Shown here in pieces: positions 15,024 through 44,528 of a stretch of 64,000 bases of DNA; position 1 is the first letter of the stretch; every line of letters starts with the position of its first letter. The DNA is from a virus, in IMG/VR virus record IMGVR_UViG_3300032325_000466, positions 96,001 through 160,000 of that record, one strand, 5' to 3'. The translations under genes were made by a program, and so were the position numbers. A model generated the notes under the pieces. It was not told the origin of the DNA. It saw only the letters and a list, made by a program, of their open reading frames with translations, and did not search any database.

Positions 15024-15569
15024 ATGAACATCAAAGAAATAATCACCGAAGAAGTAGTTGCCGAATACTGGACCACTGGAAGGGGTACTACAAAACAAGG
15101 TATTGATATGGGTGACATGATAAAATCTCAAGTTGAGCTGGTCAACACCCCATTAACTCAACTTAATGTTAGATATTCCCCTTTTAGTAATTCTGCAAAA
15201 ATACATGAATATTATCTATACGATAAAGAAACTGATAAGTGCGTTGGGTATTTTTTCGTAGAAATGCAAAATAAAAAATTTGATAAAGTATTGAAACCTG
15301 GTATTAGCGCAGTAATTCCCCATATAGGACTAGCACTCCGCGTTCAAGGTAAGGGTATAGCTAGTCAAATTTATACAACATTTTTACGAGGTGGTCCATG
15401 GGTGTTCGTAACTGAATCGCATAGTAATGCAGCCGCAGCACTTTGGGACAGGATAGCAACTGGTGATATCATTGAAGTTTATGTTGATGCAAAAACCGAA
15501 AAACGAATTGAAAATTCAAAGAGTGTGATCGATTATAGAATGATTGGTCCAAAAGATAGGTTCCTCTAA
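15024..15569 (+). CDS. GNAT-like protein with a capsid-targeting-like N-terminus (MNIKEIITE)
   Basis: RVQGKGIASQIY resembles GNAT motif A, followed by HSNAAAALWDRI. Late-type ATAAATA lies 5 nt upstream. Confidence 0.55.
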   Translation: MNIKEIITEEVVAEYWTTGRGTTKQGIDMGDMIKSQVELVNTPLTQLNVRYSPFSNSAKIHEYYLYDKETDKCVGYFFVEMQNKKFDKVLKPGISAVIPHIGLALRVQGKGIASQIYTTFLRGGPWVFVTESHSNAAAALWDRIATGDIIEVYVDAKTEKRIENSKSVIDYRMIGPKDRFL

Positions 15570-35428: not shown

Positions 35429-35959
35429 ATGGCACAAGAAATTATTAATATTGGCGCGCAAGCGAATGACGGTGAAGGTGACCCCCTACGCACGGCCTTT
35501 ACTAAAGTAAATAACAACTTTACTCAGTTATTTGCTACTGCATATAATACTGCTGAAGTAATCACTTACGGGAATACTGCTCAAGAGATTTTTAGTATCT
35601 CTGCAAATGCTTTTACTCAAGGCATATTTCAAATTAACTCAGTTGCCGCTAATACATCAGATAGTCAAAACATCACTATAACTGCTGCTATTAAAGATGA
35701 CCAAACAGGAGTAAAATACACTGGCCACAGCGCACTATTTAATGGTAATGCTATAACTCAATACAGCATGATAGTAGCAGATAGTAATGTAATACTGTTA
35801 GTTAATCCCTTTATAACAGGTCAAATGATCAACTTTATAAACTATCAAGTAACTTATAATAATGCAGTTCCTGGAATGAGTTTAGCACTAAATCAATCTC
35901 CTACAAATGTTCTAGGAACAGAATATCTACAACCTATTACTACTCAGCAGGCGTCATGA
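35429..35959 (+). CDS. Virion structural protein (baseplate/tail-fiber-type N-terminus)
   Basis: INIG..ANDGEGDPLRTAFTKVN.NF.QL motif typical of T4 gp9/gp10-like N-termini. Confidence 0.7.
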   Translation: MAQEIINIGAQANDGEGDPLRTAFTKVNNNFTQLFATAYNTAEVITYGNTAQEIFSISANAFTQGIFQINSVAANTSDSQNITITAAIKDDQTGVKYTGHSALFNGNAITQYSMIVADSNVILLVNPFITGQMINFINYQVTYNNAVPGMSLALNQSPTNVLGTEYLQPITTQQAS

Positions 35960-36330
35960 GAGCTAAAGAGTTTATAACTGAACAAAACAAGTTACCTGAT
36001 CGAATTACCAATCCATTACCTGCTACTTGGGTAATACCAGAGTTACAAAATCAAAATGCATATTTACAATATAGATTTTCTGTGGCATTGGCCGGTGCAC
36101 GAGCGGCTCGCAACGGCGATATACCTAAAATAGATAAAGATACGGTTTGGGGAGAAAATCAAATCGTATCAGGCTACATGAATCCAGATATAGAAGAAGA
36201 TATTGACTTTGCTTTAGGTGAAATGGGCCTTAAAGGTAAATTATTAGTCACTAGTAAAGAAAGTGAAGAAACAAGTGATACCGATATCCACAGTCCTTTA
36301 AATCCTTTTGCGGGATACAAAAGAAAATGA
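35956..36330 (+). CDS. Putative internal head protein (MRAKEFITE start)
   Basis: CTS-like N-terminus; paralog of the next ORF. Confidence 0.6.
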   Translation: MRAKEFITEQNKLPDRITNPLPATWVIPELQNQNAYLQYRFSVALAGARAARNGDIPKIDKDTVWGENQIVSGYMNPDIEEDIDFALGEMGLKGKLLVTSKESEETSDTDIHSPLNPFAGYKRK

Positions 36331-36704
36331 GAGCCAGTGAATTTATAACTGAAGCTAAGATGGGTAAAATATCCAAACATCAACAACAACCTACCCGCGG
36401 GTTAAATATTTTTACAAAGAAAATGGATACTTATGATAAGCTATATGATTTAAATCGTTTAATGATGGCTGTCGCAAGTAGCGATGGTATAAACCCAATA
36501 GAAATGCCTGCTGAAAGTTGGGTAGGTAAACACAACACGGCACATGCTTACACTAAAGAAGAACAAGCTATGCTTAATATGGCATATAAAGCGGCTGGCT
36601 TAGAGTATATAGATTTAAATAATGGTGATTTAGATAGCGAAGAACTATCTGATACAAATACTCAAAGTATAGTAAAACCATTTAAAGGCTATAAGAAAAA
36701 ATAA
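36327..36704 (+). CDS. Putative internal head protein (MRASEFITE start)
   Basis: CTS-like N-terminus; C-terminal SEE.SDT...S...PF.GYK.K shared with the previous ORF. Confidence 0.6.
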   Translation: MRASEFITEAKMGKISKHQQQPTRGLNIFTKKMDTYDKLYDLNRLMMAVASSDGINPIEMPAESWVGKHNTAHAYTKEEQAMLNMAYKAAGLEYIDLNNGDLDSEELSDTNTQSIVKPFKGYKKK

Positions 36705-37989: not shown

Positions 37990-39543
37990 ATGAGTAAAAC
38001 TGGAACAGCCTCACTAGTTAAAAACCCATATGTAAAGACCCACTTCGCCAATCAAACGCAGTTAGATGATTTTATGAAGTGCTGCGATCCAGTTACTGGA
38101 TATCTTTACTTTATGAGTAATTTCTTCTACATACAGCACCCAACTAAGGGTAGTATGGCGTACCAGCCATGGGGCTATCAAAAGCGACTAATCGATACTT
38201 ATCATAATTATCGTTACTCAATATCACTTATGCCTCGACAAAGTGGTAAATCTACTTCGGCTGCTGGGTATTTGCTATGGTACGCTATGTTCGTACCTGA
38301 CTCTACTATATTAGTTGCTGCACACAAATATACTGGCGCACAAGAAATTATGCAGCGTATTAGATATGCATATGAGAATTGTCCAGATTATATCAAAGCA
38401 GGTGTAACAACATATAACAAAGGGTCATTGGATTTCGAAAATGGTAGTCGCATTGTTTCAGCAACTACTACTGAAAATACAGGTCGTGGTATGTCTATCA
38501 CACTGTTATACTTAGACGAGTTTGCGTTCGTTAGACCAAGTATTGCTAAAGAATTTTGGACTGCTATAACTCCAACTCTATCCACTGGCGGTAAGGCGAT
38601 TATCACTTCAACTCCAAACTCAGATGAGGATCAATTTGCTTTTATTTGGAAAGGCGCTAACAAAACAGAAGATGAGTTTGGTAATACTACCCCAGTTGGA
38701 ATAAATGGATTTAAAGCATATCGAGCGCATTGGAGCGAACAGCCAGGCAGAGATGAAAAATGGGCTGAGGGAATGAAAGCCCAACTTGGAGAAGATCGTT
38801 TCAATCGAGAAATAGGATGCGAGTTCATTATTGCTGATGAAACACTGATTAATCCAAATACTCTTATTCAACTTGAGGGAATTGAACCCGTTACCCGTAT
38901 AGGACAAATTCGTTGGTATAAAAAACCTGAAAAGGGCAATATCTATTGTGTTGGACTAGATCCCAGCATTGGTACAGGCGGCGATCCTGCTGCTATACAA
39001 ATATATGAAGCAAATACTACTACTCAAATTGGTGAGTGGAAGCATAATAAAACTGATATTCCTAATCAAATTAAACTACTATCACAAATAAACAAGTATA
39101 TTGTAGAATGCACCGATGAACCCGATAATCTTTACTATTCAATAGAGAATAATTCTATAGGCGAAGCCGCACTAGTATCACTCAATGAATATGGGGAACA
39201 CAATATACCAGGTGCTTTTTTAAGCGAGCCAGGTAAAAAGCGTAAAGGTTTCACTACAACTAATAAGTCTAAAATACAAGCTTGTGCCAAGTTCAAAACA
39301 CTAGTAGAAAATAAAAAACTAAAAGTAAATAGTCGCAGTCTTATATCTGAATTAAAAGCATTTGTAGCAAGTGGTGGTAGTTATGCGGCCAAAATAGGTG
39401 ATACCGATGATTTAATTATGGCTACACTATTGGTTGTTAGAATGTTTCAACAACTAAGTGATTATCATTACAATTTAGAAGAACAAATTAAAGACCACAG
39501 TGAATTTTTAGCTCCGCTACCCTTTTATGCAATATTAGGATAA
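37990..39543 (+). CDS. terL: Terminase large subunit (T4 gp17-like)
   Basis: PRQSGKST Walker A, LLYLDEFAF Walker B, ITSTPN, FNREIGCEF, nuclease VGLDPSIGTGGD and DDLIMA. Confidence 0.95.
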   Translation: MSKTGTASLVKNPYVKTHFANQTQLDDFMKCCDPVTGYLYFMSNFFYIQHPTKGSMAYQPWGYQKRLIDTYHNYRYSISLMPRQSGKSTSAAGYLLWYAMFVPDSTILVAAHKYTGAQEIMQRIRYAYENCPDYIKAGVTTYNKGSLDFENGSRIVSATTTENTGRGMSITLLYLDEFAFVRPSIAKEFWTAITPTLSTGGKAIITSTPNSDEDQFAFIWKGANKTEDEFGNTTPVGINGFKAYRAHWSEQPGRDEKWAEGMKAQLGEDRFNREIGCEFIIADETLINPNTLIQLEGIEPVTRIGQIRWYKKPEKGNIYCVGLDPSIGTGGDPAAIQIYEANTTTQIGEWKHNKTDIPNQIKLLSQINKYIVECTDEPDNLYYSIENNSIGEAALVSLNEYGEHNIPGAFLSEPGKKRKGFTTTNKSKIQACAKFKTLVENKKLKVNSRSLISELKAFVASGGSYAAKIGDTDDLIMATLLVVRMFQQLSDYHYNLEEQIKDHSEFLAPLPFYAILG

Positions 39544-39582
39544 TTCATACTTTAGATAAATATTTAATAACTTGAGTAAATT

Positions 39583-42500
39583 ATGCCAAAGAATAACTCT
39601 TCAATCAACAATTCGCTATTTGACCTACTAAAAGGCAGGGGATATTCTCCCACAATGCTTAGTACCGCGGGTAAAGAAATACCTACCCCTGATGAAGCTG
39701 AAGTATTTCAGTTTAATTTTGTAAAAGATGGGGAAGATTATGGTAAAGTAACCCTAACAATAGATGATTCCAGTAACCTGATAGTGTATTATAGCGACGA
39801 TGTTGCTGACAGTGAAAAAGGTAATGGATCAACTTATGATTGGGATGATTTTATTGACAAAGTAAAAGACTTTAAGAAATCCAAAAAAACATCCAAATTG
39901 AAAGAAGAAGATGATGATGATGAGGACTTTAAAAGTGAAGGTGGTGATTTATCTTGGTATGGTTTATTAAATCAATTAAAGCGTTTCGCACAAAGATATC
40001 AACTAAGCTTTGAACTTAGAAACACAGACAATCTAAAGTCTGATATGGCCAAAAGAGATTATATGAAGAAACAAGACCAAATTTCAGAAAGCAAAAACCA
40101 TAGTATGGCGGAAGGTTACTCACTAAAGAAAACTAATGTTGAAAAAACATTTGATCCAGGTGATCCTGATGAATACACACAAGATGTCAATACAACATAT
40201 ACTGATTACGAAATTATCAACAATAAGACAGGTCAAGTAGTTGGAACTGCTAGTTGGACTACTAATGATTTTATGGGCCCAGGAGCACTAAAGATTACTA
40301 TGAAGAATGGTGCTACTAGATGGTTAGATATTTGGGAACGAGAAAAGGGTAATCCACAAACAGCATTCAATCGTTTTGTTAAAGATCCCAAAACTGCTAA
40401 GAAGTATAAAGAACAAGATAATAAAGGTGTAACAGAAATGGACAATCGTACCCCAAGTGGTGATCGCAGAGAACAGCGTGCCAATAGCCCAGAAGAAAAA
40501 GCAAAGCGTGAAAAAGAACAACAAGCAAATCTAAAAAAAGTAAGTCCAAAAATGCGCGAAAAATTACGCTTACCTGAACCTAAAGAAGATATGGCAGAAG
40601 GCACTGAAAGTATTCTTGCTCGTGGCACAGAGGTAACTGTTCCACACAGAGGCAAAATGGTGCCAGGCAAAATTCTTAGATATGTTGCTGGTAAAGGTGG
40701 CTATTCAGATGCTTATGTAGTTGATATTGGTGAGTATGAGTCCCTGACTGTACCAACATTTAATGTTAAAACTCAAGTTATGGCGGAAGCCAGCGGTGAT
40801 CAAGTTAAAAAAGTGTTTAAGAAAAATGGTAAGCCAGTAGGTGAAGTTGGTATTGATCCAGAAGCAAGTCCGGGCGTTGGTCAATGGTATATGAAGTGCT
40901 ATCAATACAAAATAGATAATAGTGGCTATGACTCATACGAAGAAGCTGTAGAAGAATTAAAGTATTGTATGAAGCAAGGTATGGTGGAAGCACGAAATCC
41001 AGAAGACTTCATCAAGGATATTAAAAATATTCCCTTACGCCAACGCCAACGAATTGGCAAGTCATTAATCAAACATGCTGAGGAAGCAGGATTAAGGCCT
41101 GAAACAATAAAAGTGGGTTATAGTGAAACAACTGGGGTTTATCAGGTCACCGGTCTAGCCATGAAACACGGTGCGAAATACGACTGGAGATACAAGTCTG
41201 ACCCGGCTACTAATAAAATGGTCTCTCTTGATGCCATGCAATCTGATACTGAGTATGCCCCTGATAAATTTATGCCAATCGTATTTGATAAGTTAGATGA
41301 GCAAGATATGGTGAAAGGCACTGAGGACTCAACTCAAGTATTAAGCGATATTGTTGCTAATGACGATTTTGATGCATTGTATGACTTAATGTCGTCTAAT
41401 ACTGAAGCAGGTAAAATTGTTCAACGAATGTATAACGATGTTGCTGGTGAAGAAGGCTTACATCCAGATGATGATTTTGAACAGATTCTAAACCGTGTGT
41501 TTGATCACCTGTCACAAGATTATGGTCAGCAAGGTATGGAGGAAGGCTTAGGCAAAGATATCAAGCGTTTGGCTACAGGCAAAGATGTTAAAAGTCGTGC
41601 TGGACAAGAAATAGCCAAGTCACAAGATGCCAGTATGAAGGGCGATACTAAAACTTCTAAAAAGCATTTTGACCGCTATGATAAACTAGATAAGTTAGCA
41701 AACAAAGGTATGGCGGAAGGCTGGAATAAGGGACGCCGCGCCGCAGATGTGGATCGGGATGACAATAAAGACCCAGACGATTCATTAGATCAACTCATTG
41801 ATCTGCAAGGACAAAGGGATTGGTTTGCTAAAATGAGTAAGCCTAAGAATATGAGAAACGGCCGCCAGAAGCCAGCTAAGGATGCTATAAAAAGGTTACC
41901 AGTGGCGGAAGGAGCTATAAAGAAATTATCAAAGGGCGCAAAGGTGTATCACACACTTCATGGTACTGGTACTGTTATTGACTTCTCAACTGGTCCTGCT
42001 GCATCTCATTGGGTAGATGTGAAATTTATCAAAGACGGAAACAAAGGCAAGCCTACTAGGGTTGATCGTAAGCAACTTAAGTTAGCAAAAGTTGAAAGTA
42101 TGGCCGAAGGCTATTATGGTGATGATCGTGGTGATTATAGAAAAACTGCTAGGGAAGCAAATGCTGCATCTAGGTTGGCAAAATCATCAAAAACTCATGC
42201 TGAGGCCGCCCGCCTACATAATTTAGCAGCAACATATGCGCTATCAGCAGGCCAAGATCAGTCAGTAATACGCGACCATCAGATGGCAGCACATGAACAT
42301 AATCAGGCTGCAAAAAAATATAAGAAAGGTATGGCGGAAGGCTACACTGTAACTCGTGGAATTGATACAGAAAGATATCAAGAACGCCCGGGATTGGAAG
42401 GTCCCTTTGCTACCAAAAGCGGTAAAGTTGTATACTATGACAAGCGTGAAGGAAAATACTACGATCCCGATACTGATATGTATATTGAATATGATGATTG

Positions 42501-43662
42501 GCAAGCTATGAATGAGCAAGATATGGCAGAAAGTAATCAACAAGTCAATGAAAGTTACTACCCAATGGGCAAACAAGGTAGCTATAGTGATGCTGTACCA
42601 ACAACTAAAATCATTATTCAGCATAGCCGCAGAATAGAAGAAGGTGAGCAGCGTTATCGTAATATCGCTAAAATCTTTGTAGAAAACAGTGAAGGTGAGC
42701 GTTTTGCGGTACCAACTAATAAGCCAGGACTAGCCCGCGTATATGCCCGTCATATAGCAGAGGGTGGCACACCTTATGATGAGCGTGGCCGTCATATTAC
42801 TTCATTAGTAGAAGAATATTCTAAAATGTCTGGCTTTATGCGTGCCACAAGAGGCAAGCAGTTTAATGAGTCAGCACAGCAATTAGTAACCGAAGCTGTA
42901 AATTATTATCAAAGTTTGCGTGAAAGTTTAAGCAAGATGACAGGTCATCGTGGCTATTCAGCATACTTTGAAAGTTGGACACCTTCACTAATGGAAGATG
43001 GAGAAGAACAAGAAACCAATCTTAACGAACTATTCGTACAAGAAACCCTCGACCCCAGAATTGAAAGTGTAATGCCAATCTTAGGTAAGCTACAAAGAAA
43101 ATTGGGCACCATAAAAGAAGTTGATGCACTAGCAGAATGGGCTGATAATATTATTGAAGGTGATGGCGGACAAGAGGCTCTTACCCCACAAGGTATTCCT
43201 GAAGCTGCTGGTCCAGAAACTTTAGCTCATAATATAAGAACCGATCGTAGTAATCTAAAAGCATTTGACTTAGAAGAAACTACTGGTGTAACTGACTATA
43301 ACCCAAAATCTCAGGGTGGTACTAGAGCAGAACTTCTTCGCAAATATGCTAACACTAAAAAGCCAAAAGATGCCGAAGCTGCAAGGCGTGCAGGTGCTAG
43401 CCAGTCAGAATTAAAAGCTGCGGCCGATTCTACTGAAGAAATACATGAAGGTGAGCATGGTCTAGATGAAAACCTAGATGCTAACCAAATTAGTGCAGGA
43501 CAATTGGGCCCTACAGAAAAAGCCAAGTCTATTAGTCCAGTATTAGGTGCTCAACCCAAACAGCATCCTTTTAAAGGCAAGTTAGTTGGTGCTGAAGAAA
43601 GCGTCAATGAAAGTGAAAATGAATTGGCTAGAATTTTACAAATGGTCAAGCATAAACGATAA
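39583..43662 (+). CDS. 1359-aa modular protein, candidate protease-processed head polyprotein
   Basis: Late-type GATAAATA upstream; about 12 (G/D/S/V)-M-A-E-G-like linkers separate unrelated 50-110 aa modules. Confidence 0.65.
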   Translation: MPKNNSSINNSLFDLLKGRGYSPTMLSTAGKEIPTPDEAEVFQFNFVKDGEDYGKVTLTIDDSSNLIVYYSDDVADSEKGNGSTYDWDDFIDKVKDFKKSKKTSKLKEEDDDDEDFKSEGGDLSWYGLLNQLKRFAQRYQLSFELRNTDNLKSDMAKRDYMKKQDQISESKNHSMAEGYSLKKTNVEKTFDPGDPDEYTQDVNTTYTDYEIINNKTGQVVGTASWTTNDFMGPGALKITMKNGATRWLDIWEREKGNPQTAFNRFVKDPKTAKKYKEQDNKGVTEMDNRTPSGDRREQRANSPEEKAKREKEQQANLKKVSPKMREKLRLPEPKEDMAEGTESILARGTEVTVPHRGKMVPGKILRYVAGKGGYSDAYVVDIGEYESLTVPTFNVKTQVMAEASGDQVKKVFKKNGKPVGEVGIDPEASPGVGQWYMKCYQYKIDNSGYDSYEEAVEELKYCMKQGMVEARNPEDFIKDIKNIPLRQRQRIGKSLIKHAEEAGLRPETIKVGYSETTGVYQVTGLAMKHGAKYDWRYKSDPATNKMVSLDAMQSDTEYAPDKFMPIVFDKLDEQDMVKGTEDSTQVLSDIVANDDFDALYDLMSSNTEAGKIVQRMYNDVAGEEGLHPDDDFEQILNRVFDHLSQDYGQQGMEEGLGKDIKRLATGKDVKSRAGQEIAKSQDASMKGDTKTSKKHFDRYDKLDKLANKGMAEGWNKGRRAADVDRDDNKDPDDSLDQLIDLQGQRDWFAKMSKPKNMRNGRQKPAKDAIKRLPVAEGAIKKLSKGAKVYHTLHGTGTVIDFSTGPAASHWVDVKFIKDGNKGKPTRVDRKQLKLAKVESMAEGYYGDDRGDYRKTAREANAASRLAKSSKTHAEAARLHNLAATYALSAGQDQSVIRDHQMAAHEHNQAAKKYKKGMAEGYTVTRGIDTERYQERPGLEGPFATKSGKVVYYDKREGKYYDPDTDMYIEYDDWQAMNEQDMAESNQQVNESYYPMGKQGSYSDAVPTTKIIIQHSRRIEEGEQRYRNIAKIFVENSEGERFAVPTNKPGLARVYARHIAEGGTPYDERGRHITSLVEEYSKMSGFMRATRGKQFNESAQQLVTEAVNYYQSLRESLSKMTGHRGYSAYFESWTPSLMEDGEEQETNLNELFVQETLDPRIESVMPILGKLQRKLGTIKEVDALAEWADNIIEGDGGQEALTPQGIPEAAGPETLAHNIRTDRSNLKAFDLEETTGVTDYNPKSQGGTRAELLRKYANTKKPKDAEAARRAGASQSELKAAADSTEEIHEGEHGLDENLDANQISAGQLGPTEKAKSISPVLGAQPKQHPFKGKLVGAEESVNESENELARILQMVKHKR
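40105..42533 (+). repeat. Dispersed in-frame linker repeats, consensus ATGGCGGAAGGC
   Basis: Copies at 40105, 40591, 40780, 40981, 41308, 41536, 41710, 41902, 42100, 42331 and 42522, plus a GVTE variant near 40426. Confidence 0.85.
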
Positions 43663-43706: not shown

Positions 43707-43794
43707 CCATATATGGCATAAATGGACTAAATAAAGGTGTAGTTCACGGGACGGCAATCCCCAACTACTCTAACGCTTACAAGGAGCATCAGCA

Positions 43795-44367
43795 ATGTTA
43801 TTTAGTAAAAAGCATCTACCCGCGGGATTTTATGTGTATTTTTGGATACGAGTAAAAGATTCCCCCATTGCTAAGGCAGGCACTCCTTACTATGTAGGAA
43901 AAGGTAAAAATATTAGGGCTTGGCGAAAGGATAAGCATGGAAAAGATAAATTGGTCATTATTGCAGAATCAAACCTTACTGAATTGGGGGCTCTTTCATT
44001 AGAAAGGCGTTATATCGAATGGTATGGTAGAAAAGATTTAGGTACTGGGATACTTAATAATAAGACTGATGGGGGAGAAGGTGCTACTAATTTTAAAAAA
44101 TCGTATATAAGAAAAAAGAGGTCCATTGCCACAACTACATTAATGAGTCTTACCAAACTTGGCAAAAAATACCCTAAAATAAGTGAGGCGCTTAAAGGTA
44201 AATCTAGGGGAATCAGGACTACTGAATGGAAAAATAATATTGGACTCGCTAAAAAAGGTAAAAAGATATCTCCCCAGGAAGTAGTACAATGCCCACATTG
44301 TAGTAAGGTAGGAGGCAAATCTTTACTAACTCGGTATCATTTTCAAAATTGCAAATTTATTAAATAG
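43795..44367 (+). mobile_element. Free-standing homing endonuclease (GIY-YIG-like N-terminus, NUMOD-like basic repeats, C-terminal CPHC)
   Basis: FYVY.WIR....PYYVGKG...R.W; [20 protein letters not shown]; ISEALKGK; CPHC.K.G. Flanked by an 11-bp direct repeat. Confidence 0.75.
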
Positions 44368-44410
44368 GGCATAATAAAATTCATTTCCCCCACAAATGGC
44401 ATAAATACTA

Positions 44411-44439
44411 TTGACATACAGCCGAGAGTAAAGTATACT
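44411..44439 (+). promoter_or_regulatory. Sigma70 promoter for gp32, with an overlapping late ATAAATA at 44401
   Basis: TTGACA-N17-TATACT. Confidence 0.7.
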
Positions 44440-44528
44440 CATAACATGTGTGTTAGATGACTCATAGGGAGTTGTCGAATATATACATTTTAGATATTAA
44501 ACAGAGACCATCTCAAGGAGCAATTAAA

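Follow-up and report, generated by a model that had tools for sequence, protein, structure and literature searches.

A modular array inserted in a virion-protein gene of an uncultured lake phage, a probable carrier of head cargo

An array of small modules within a virion-protein gene

Why would a tailed phage keep, directly behind its large terminase gene, one long reading frame in which the same short peptide recurs between many small, unrelated segments? We considered this question for a 64,000-nucleotide (nt) stretch of DNA, here called the window, that spans bases 96001–160000 of one 191-kb contig with 38.6% G+C (IMG/VR record IMGVR_UViG_3300032325_000466). The source is an uncultured phage with T4-type head and replication genes, a T4-like phage from a lake. 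The gene is an open reading frame (ORF) at window positions 39583–43662, open throughout and encoding a product of 1359 amino acids (aa); it and all of its parts described below lie on the plus strand. The initial annotation had described it as a polyprotein of about 12 modules joined by in-frame MAE|G linkers (the bar marking the proposed cut), packaged into the prohead and cut there into small effectors. We conclude that the gene is probably a head-cargo carrier, in which a backbone virion protein holds 11 modules where its N domain meets its core, and that these would be cut apart by a gp21-type protease, released, and exchanged between carriers at the joints.

Residues 1–177 and 984–1359 of the protein aligned with gp278 of the Pseudomonas jumbo phage PA5oct, a module-free protein of 496 aa whose record annotates it as a virion structural protein found by electrospray ionization tandem mass spectrometry (ESI-MS/MS), and which occupies the same place after the terminase. 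The large terminase gene of the window (TerL; 37990–39543, Terminase_6N/6C, phrog_36964) lies directly upstream of the 1359-aa ORF, its product is 50% identical to the PA5oct terminase, and the gene order TerL–X–gp32–UvsX is common to the window and PA5oct. Judged from its sequence, the 1359-aa ORF is an ortholog of the PA5oct gp278 virion protein and consists of a gp278-like backbone with an 806-residue insertion (11 modules, residues 178–983) between the N domain and the core. The multi-module, linker-joined character of the product and its place beside the terminase stand as initially described, but the array is a set of cassettes within a conserved virion protein and not a free-standing polyprotein.

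The core (residues 984–1192; 42532–43158) is 30% identical to PA5oct gp278 and nearly invariant among close relatives, and within it residues 986–1128 matched phrog_13484, ‘virion structural protein’ (E 2.8e-10). A tblastn search with the core returned PA5oct and 10 related records (E 1e-15, ~30% identity), and a HMMER scan returned 1432 family representatives at 50% clustering, 1032 of them at E 1e-10 or better. Among the best 150 core homologs, the position at which the core starts ranged from about residue 125 to residue 1048. Where the related loci that we fetched had enough flanking DNA, TerL was directly upstream in 43 of 61 and gp32 lay no more than 2.5 kb downstream in 38 of 56. The conserved N domain (residues 1–177; 39583–40113), which ends in SMAE, aligns to the N-terminus of PA5oct gp278 and is probably a targeting or propeptide domain. 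Module-free orthologs have I-x-E|GYYPMG at the junction of N domain and core, where the window has QVNE|SYYPMG; the module-free junction is thus already of the form hydrophobic-x-Glu, and the array sits where the form of a cut site existed beforehand.

Behind the core lies a second variable region (residues 1193–1335; 43159–43587), which is replaced in the close relatives L005 and L006, is enlarged by one module in L004, and is the main site of module insertion in most of the distant homologs. In L005, and at about 3221–3956 of L006, the replacement is a Gly/Ala-rich, hydrophobic, membrane-like sequence of ~245 aa. The gene closes with a conserved C-terminal tail (..ESVNESENELARILQMVKHKR) and its stop codon (43588–43662), which has 93% nt identity to L005 and L006 and is kept in the homolog alignments.

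All 12 linkers listed in the initial annotation were present in their places, at residues 174, 282, 336, 399, 466, 575, 651, 709, 773, 839, 916 and 980 (nt 40102–42534). They bound 11 segments of 54–109 aa each, one fewer than the dozen or so first counted, which we number m1 to m11 from the N-terminus. In order, the linkers read SMAE|G (40102–40116; AGT ATG GCG GAA GGT), GVTE|M (40426–40440; homologs keep KGVTE|MD), DMAE|G (40588–40602), VMAE|A (40777–40791), GMVE|A (40978–40992), DMVK|G (41305–41319), GMEE|G (41533–41547), GMAE|G (41707–41721; GGT ATG GCG GAA GGC), PVAE|G (41899–41913), SMAE|G (42097–42111), GMAE|G (42328–42342; again GGT ATG GCG GAA GGC) and DMAE|S (42520–42534), the last followed by QVNE|S at the core start. 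The sixth is degenerate, with Lys for the expected Glu, and differs by two base changes from the consensus GAT ATG GCG GAA GGC; homologs have VAE|G or MAE|G before m6, and DMVKG is probably a joint that decayed recently. Should the joints be cut sites, no cut would fall here and m5 and m6 would remain one piece. The hydrophobic-x-Glu rule of gp21 fits the other 11 of the 12 joints at the level of sequence.

The tetrapeptide MAEG is found at five places in this ORF, where the composition of the protein would predict ~0.02 (Poisson P 3e-11), and is absent from the other 231 ORFs of the contig. For the looser motif [MV][AVET]E[GA] we counted 10 instances, with 0.39 expected. The segments between the linkers are as dissimilar to one another as first described, the best E in an all-against-all BLASTP comparison being 0.066. 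The rare Ala codon GCG, which the initial annotation had remarked on, makes up five of the eight linker Ala codons against 8.2% genome-wide; GGC likewise accounts for six of the eight linker Gly codons against 20% of Gly codons genome-wide.

Exchange of modules at the joints

A word-indexed search returned 594 homologs of 747–2379 aa, and we mapped the parts of the window protein onto the best 119 of them. The N domain and core were present in essentially all of these (the N domain in 117), and each module occurred in 1 to 19, with differing order and neighbours. Together with the related loci L004–L006 and L140, this comparison gave the pattern that the initial annotation had anticipated for orthologs, in which the N- and C-terminal parts are constant, the number, order and identity of the modules vary, and the breakpoints fall at the linkers. 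Insertions in the homologs have two hot spots, the junction of N domain and core and the stretch that separates the core from the C-terminal tail. Across the family the joint reads (E/K/Q)-Q-(G/D)-(V/M)-A-E|G, with the shorter consensus (V/M)(A/S/T)E|G around the cut. VAEG was the commonest 4-mer in 120 homologs (164 occurrences against 3.7 expected), so that MAE|G, although it is the linker of this protein, is the less frequent form in the family as a whole. When these 120 proteins were cut at the joints and the pieces were clustered, we obtained 214 clusters, 156 of them singletons, and the recurrent clusters had sharply fixed lengths.

Pairs of loci place the exchange with precision. L006 and the window share ~94% nt identity in TerL, the N domain, the core and gp32, and L006 carries a wholly different array of two modules; the two sequences part immediately behind ATGGCGGAAGG of the first joint and are alike again from the last joint onward. 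The same two breakpoints are found in L004 and L005, each of which has yet another array. In L140, TerL is 74% identical to that of the window at the nt level and the N domain 40% at the aa level, whereas m1 and m2 together have 97.6% nt identity and m3 has 97.1%; an additional Cys-rich module sits exactly at the joint between m2 and m3. P0006 carries an m5 that is 99% identical to ours on a backbone that is 66–75% identical. These comparisons (L006, L140 and P0006) carry the most weight and indicate that modules move as cassettes between diverged phages, and that they do so at the joints.

The joints are also conserved as DNA. Our codon survey took in 74 distinct [VM]AEG joints, drawn from 33 different ORFs that lie on many contigs, with the same ORFs as background, and showed that Val was encoded by GTG in 82% of joints against 19% of the background (P 2e-24), Ala by GCG in 77% against 7% (P 1e-50), and Gly by GGC in 59% against 29% (P 4e-8). 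The resulting consensus is RTG GCG GAA GGC, in which Met ATG and Val GTG are one transition apart. The proposal that the linker is conserved at the DNA level is therefore borne out across the family, and the accompanying proposal that it serves as a recombination joint is strengthened by the same survey. Most simply, the joints would descend from a common source, and exchange taking place inside them would preserve their likeness; the nucleotide conservation and exact breakpoints together support a joint with a dual purpose.

A bolder version of this idea, which we consider rather doubtful but tenable, is that the 12–18-nt joint (CAA GGY RTG GCG GAA GGC) is itself selected as an in-frame recombination site that also encodes a protease cut site, giving an integron-like, community-wide exchange of capsid cargo. 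If that were true, joint-flanked modules could be moved between carriers and distant phages with frame, targeting and processing intact, and lake and marine T4-like phages would share a rapidly re-sorted arsenal of injected proteins. No dedicated recombinase came to light.

The modules are not confined to proteins with this backbone. We searched the array among shorter proteins and examined the best 120 matches: 110 of these 120 module-bearing proteins lacked the backbone, and most were chains of modules with the same joints. Many of the shorter proteins start with leaders resembling the T4 capsid-targeting sequence (CTS), among them MKITDVVE, MRADEFITE, MKTLRDYINLIE..GVAE, MRFNEFNLNE and MKIRDILTE. 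In T4, the capsid-targeting leader MKTYQEFIAE is cut off by gp21 after its terminal Glu, and residues 8 and 10 govern processing (PMC9026906). Some proteins hold a single module, with P0146 consisting of a leader and m1 (146 aa) and P0181 of a leader and m7 (84 aa). In several proteins the terminal Glu of the leader directly abuts residue 1 of the module, as in MKITDVVE|GYTV and MRAKEFITE|GYTL, so that a joint between modules occupies the same position as a type of cut site known from experiment. One IMG/VR ORF (L230) has the leader MRAKEFITE fused directly to an m1-like module.

Scans of IMG/VR extended this pool further, with m4 at 52 loci, m11 on at least 94 stretches, m6 at 36, m7 at 15 and m1 at 8, in host ORFs of 219–1978 aa. 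Hydrophobic-x-Glu stood immediately before the module in 9 of 9 distinct contexts for m1, 28 of 32 for m4, 9 of 11 for m7 and 41 of 62 for m11. When m4 was aligned across 24 proteins of unrelated architecture, identity was 53–88% inside the module and homology was gone beyond the flanking VAEG joints. Among leader-bearing chains of other phages (P0197, P0239, P0240, P0221 and P0138) we recognised ParB_N and GP88 domains, a segment resembling ribosome modulation factor (RMF) and, at a C-terminus, the Cys-rich DUF6321, which may hint at the role of such cargo. In the collection of cultured phages that we searched, m11 alone of the modules has relatives, and these are small hypothetical proteins of KVP40-like vibriophages. 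One of them is the lone 83-aa homolog KVP40.0154 of Vibrio phage KVP40 (L001 2414–2665), whose gene lies two genes upstream of dda in KVP40-like phages; it is the sole link of the module pool to cultured phages and a possible entry point for experiments.

Candidate cut sites and rival readings

The head genes of this phage form a T4-type set with a portal, a gp21-like protease, a scaffold-like protein and a major capsid protein. The protease is a 215-aa ORF (genome 65528–66175) that matched phrog_207, head maturation protease, at E 2.1e-60. T4 gp21 cuts after Glu in L/I-x-E, the first known cut being at a Glu-Ala bond (PMC9026906), and the giant-phage relatives of gp21 also cut after Glu (PMC5694885, PMC10052503). 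Similar sites are found in the head proteins of this genome: the N-terminal region of the capsid protein has LLE, LLE, ILE and LLAE|S, and the scaffold-like protein has VAE|G, VAE|S and several LAE, with [VLMI]AE at ~9x genome density. A very acidic protein of 279 aa, encoded on the minus strand between the portal and the prohead protease (genome 66191–67030; L003 8191–9030, outside the window), has six M-x-E and no PHROG match, and could be a component of the prohead core that is processed to peptides.

The joint variants VSE, VTE, MEE, VKE, VEE and MSE keep the Glu and the hydrophobic residue two before it while the middle residue varies, as a rule at the peptide level predicts. The S/A/G-x-E rule of phiKZ-like proteases, which the initial annotation had offered beside that of gp21, does not apply, for the position two before the cut is Met or Val in 12 of 12 joints here and is V in 77% and M in 23% of the family-wide [VM][AST]E joints. 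The joints fit, as far as their residues can tell, the cutting rule of the phage's own head protease. A role for this protease is supported by the presence of a gp21-type enzyme in the genome, by [LVM]AE in the head proteins, by the leaders that end in Glu, and by the mass-spectrometric annotation of the PA5oct ortholog.

If the gene is a head-cargo carrier, its precursor would be made late in infection, and the backbone, via the N domain, would bring it into the prohead. There the protease would cut after each joint Glu and free the core and up to eleven proteins of ~6–12 kDa, which would lie beside the DNA, with fewer proteins freed if the DMVK joint stays uncut. The freed proteins could then enter the host with the DNA, like the T4 internal proteins, and might act against host defences or in host takeover. 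At the same time the joint DNA would permit in-frame exchange of cassettes among carriers, leading to a community-wide module pool shared with the CTS-led proteins. Of all this, the sequences themselves show the architecture, the shuffling at joints, the conservation of the joint as DNA, the protease gene and corresponding sites in other head proteins; cleavage, packaging, ejection and a part in anti-defence or takeover are inferred. A T4 late-promoter-like box, GATAAATA (39555–39562, plus strand), can be read 21 nt before the ATG with one mismatch to TATAAATA, and may serve as a late promoter; exact matches to that T4 sequence show no enrichment across the window, and upstream of the 1359-aa gene only this one-mismatch box was seen.

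Several observations weigh against this account. The protein starts MPKNNSSINNSLFDLL and has, in place of a canonical 10-residue CTS, the 177-aa conserved N domain, to which head targeting can be assigned only tentatively. The joints have Val or Met two before the cut, where T4 gp21 prefers Leu or Ile, and the Lys at the cutting position of DMVKG means that complete processing cannot be essential. Strong conservation of the joint as DNA points to a constraint or a history beyond what a protease site needs. In the collection of cultured phages that we searched, only m11 and the bare backbone were found and no such array. Three of the modules are predicted to be disordered or did not fold in the model, and no module has a known function. 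Searches against solved structures gave no clear fold match for the backbone core: Foldseek against the PDB returned no match with E <0.001 for the backbone or array model, and VIA-align found a middling KA1-like match for the N domain (Z 6.6) and only generic helices for the core.

Some of these points would be expected if the protein stayed whole, as uncut beads on a string that form an internal body, a scaffold-like filament or an external decoration, with the joints as hinges and recombination joints. We think this unlikely, though it draws on the nucleotide conservation of the joints beyond the need of the peptide, on the one joint that lost its Glu, on the cleavage being a prediction, and on a backbone that gave no clear match to a solved fold. 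An uncut protein sits poorly with variant joints that differ in the middle residue and in the codons yet retain the Glu and, two before it, the hydrophobic residue, with capsid-targeting-like leaders ending in Glu that form the same junction, and with [LV]AE sites in the scaffold and capsid proteins of the same genome; the modules, moreover, also exist as separate small proteins (P0146, P0181, KVP40.0154). A second alternative keeps the cleavage and changes its agent or extent, the joints being cut by a host protease after injection, by another phage protease, or only in part, so that larger multi-module pieces would result. Against it stand the VAE and LAE sites in the phage's own capsid and scaffold proteins, a search in and beside the gene that turned up no other protease, and the established specificity of gp21-type enzymes for the Glu of hydrophobic-x-Glu (PMC9026906, PMC5694885); we therefore hold this scheme to be distinctly improbable, even with Val/Met in place of the Leu/Ile preferred by gp21 (PMC9026906) and with one degenerate joint in its favour.

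The start codons hidden in the joints raise a further reading, that ATG or GTG at the hydrophobic position (17 Met, and GTG in 47 of 57 Val codons, both bacterial start codons) marks internal translation starts that give separate modules or nested C-terminal products. Such starts have very little to recommend them, as no stop codon precedes any joint, which would yield nested products and not separate modules, and the purine-rich AAGG precedes the codon by only 1–2 nt, a spacing too short for a ribosome-binding site. Some joints, besides, have Ile, Leu or a GTA-encoded Val, and the ATG/GTG pattern is explained by descent, the two codons being one transition apart. That the motif recurs by chance or through low complexity in an ordinary structural protein could appeal only to the general frequency of hydrophobic-x-Glu; it is refuted by the Poisson P of ~3e-11, by the 164 VAEG against 3.7 expected, and by homology breakpoints that fall on the motif. 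We accordingly favour the head-cargo carrier, and suggest that this phage probably loads its capsid with many small separable proteins.

Proteins that are packaged and injected are the first move of a phage against host defences. If the array is processed as we propose, uncultured T4-like phages would deliver a dozen or more small proteins per gene, re-sorted as cassettes, and the 214 segment clusters from 120 homologs would amount to a large store, so far unexplored, of candidates for anti-defence or takeover roles. Such processing would also supply a simple sequence rule for finding them in metagenomes, a new use of polyproteins in tailed phages, and a scheme taken from nature by which T4-type capsids could be loaded with several foreign proteins. 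A single short sequence that acts as a peptide signal and as a DNA exchange joint would be an unusual case of selection at two levels.

The modules and the neighbouring genes

The predicted structures of the modules differ along the array. We folded the window array with an alignment for m11 only, and for m4, m8 and m9 a low score is a poor guide to whether the module folds. The first module, m1 (108 aa; 40114–40437), is beta-rich with a mean predicted local distance difference test (pLDDT) of ~70, is present in 19 of the 119 mapped homologs at 85–97% identity, and recurs in CTS-led proteins such as P0146. It is followed by m2 (54 aa; 40438–40599), charged and partly helical or disordered, present in 15 of them and of low confidence (pLDDT ~50), and by m3 (63 aa; 40600–40788), a predicted Tudor/SH3-like beta-barrel (pLDDT ~78) whose model matched the ERCC6-L2 Tudor domain with Z 9.3 and a root-mean-square deviation (rmsd) of 1.9 Å over 58 of 58 residues. 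Two conserved Cys characterize m4 (67 aa; 40789–40989), which is among the most widely shared modules and was not folded without an alignment, and m5 (109 aa; 40990–41316) is alpha+beta at low confidence (pLDDT ~50).

Helical models were obtained for m6 (76 aa; 41317–41544), an acidic bundle with a net charge of -16 and pLDDT ~76 that is present in 17 of the 119 homologs, for m7 (58 aa; 41545–41718), a basic hairpin with pLDDT ~72 that also stands alone behind the leader of P0181, and for m10 (77 aa; 42109–42339), a three-helix bundle with pLDDT ~88 and only generic MIT/TPR-like helical matches (Z ~8.5). Between these, m8 (64 aa; 41719–41910) is charged and predicted to be disordered (pLDDT ~33) and is present in one of the 119 homologs, at 95% identity. 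The next module, m9 (66 aa; 41911–42108), may be a small beta domain, possibly Tudor-like (pLDDT ~48), with a weak Pfam match to PcrA_UvrD_tudor at E 0.005, under the curated cut-off. The array ends with m11 (64 aa; 42340–42531), a GLEGPF..YYD..YYD module that belongs to phrog_13298 and was predicted with confidence as a small beta domain (pLDDT ~90 with the alignment). In this model, 10 of 11 joints lay inside or directly beside segments with pLDDT <50, and the joint between m10 and m11 lay in a milder dip; low-confidence dips between differently folded modules would fit exposed linkers.

For the backbone we folded the near-identical ortholog, the L006 ORF, with a 70-sequence alignment. The N domain was modelled as alpha/beta followed by a long helix (pLDDT ~90) and the core as a beta sheet followed by helices (pLDDT above 90), and the Gly-rich second variable region had low confidence. 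The BFVD relatives of the backbone came from uncultured phages and were uncharacterised; one bears the name of a large-polyvalent-protein-associated domain (LPD). Pfam searches with the whole protein and with each module gave no family at curated thresholds, a sequence search of the PDB gave no match, and the ESM Atlas, queried with the core, returned nothing but unnamed viral clusters, with scores no higher than 0.80. Inteins were rejected on inspection, the modules being too small and without the terminal Cys/Ser and His-Asn residues.

On the 3' side, the 1359-aa ORF is followed by a small homing-endonuclease-like ORF and then by genes for a gp32-type single-strand DNA-binding protein and a UvsX-like recombinase. 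The homing-endonuclease-like ORF (190 aa; 43795–44367; phrog_15526, weak phrog_655) lies inside a 776-bp stretch (43724–44499) between the array gene and gp32. The same interval is only ~77 bp in L004, L005 and L006, where that ORF is absent, which marks it as a mobile insertion specific to this phage. At 35956–36704, just before the terminase block, two tandem small genes start with MRAKEFITE and MRASEFITE, leaders of the T4 capsid-targeting type, and are probably single internal-protein-type cargo genes. A 181-aa ORF elsewhere in the window (15024–15569) starts with MNIKEIITEEVVAE, a capsid-targeting-like leader with two candidate cut sites.

Comparison with known systems

A full-text literature search for capsid-cargo polyproteins in tailed phages found no paper describing them, and the closest known system is that of the T4 internal proteins and their CTS (IPI, IPII, IPIII and Alt, with gp21 processing). 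The T4 internal proteins are diverse anti-restriction proteins with only the leader in common (PMC3012670, PMC12373910), and all three are now known as specific anti-restriction factors (PMC12373910). As with these proteins, the candidate cargo here is small, unrelated and hypervariable, the address peptide ends in hydrophobic-x-Glu and is of the kind cut by a gp21-type enzyme, relatives of the modules stand directly behind T4-like leaders, and the released pieces would be of similar size. In contrast to T4, many units are held in one chain with the cut site repeated between them, the carrier is a virion-protein domain of 130–177 aa and not a 10-residue leader, Val/Met replaces Leu/Ile, and the joint is conserved as DNA; packaging and function of the array, moreover, are here proposals.

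The polyvalent proteins encoded by phages and conjugative elements (Iyer et al. 2017, PMC5512222) likewise combine many unrelated domains in one mosaic polypeptide, for which delivery with the DNA and proteolytic release have been proposed. Our protein shares the multi-domain mosaic. It lacks, at curated Pfam thresholds, the embedded peptidase (MPTase), the characteristic enzymatic domains and the LPD domains (the LPD name of one BFVD relative aside), its modules are far smaller (54–109 aa), and release would occur in trans by the head-maturation protease at a uniform, repeated joint. Multiple cuts after Glu inside the prohead are known from T4 gp22, gp67 and gp68 and from the propeptides of phiKZ, 201phi2-1 and SPN3US (PMC5694885, PMC10052503). 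The fragments of those head proteins are thought to leave the head, whereas the segments here appear to be conserved, independently folding and exchanged domains, and the phiKZ-type motif S/A/G-x-E is not that of our joints.

The PA5oct gp278 family has the same N domain, core and post-terminase position, but PA5oct gp278 is module-free where the window protein has its 806-aa array. Integrons, with their attC cassettes, and T4-type hyperplastic regions, with their PeSL cassettes, offer a further parallel: every unit that can be exchanged is bordered by short conserved DNA elements, which mark where exchange occurs. The joint of this array, unlike those elements, stands in frame within coding sequence, spans ~12–18 nt and encodes a candidate peptide signal. 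Particular to the present gene, then, are a virion protein as the carrier, a module pool shared with leader-bearing proteins, array swaps between genomes of ~94% identity with breakpoints exact to the base, and a joint that is conserved as DNA.

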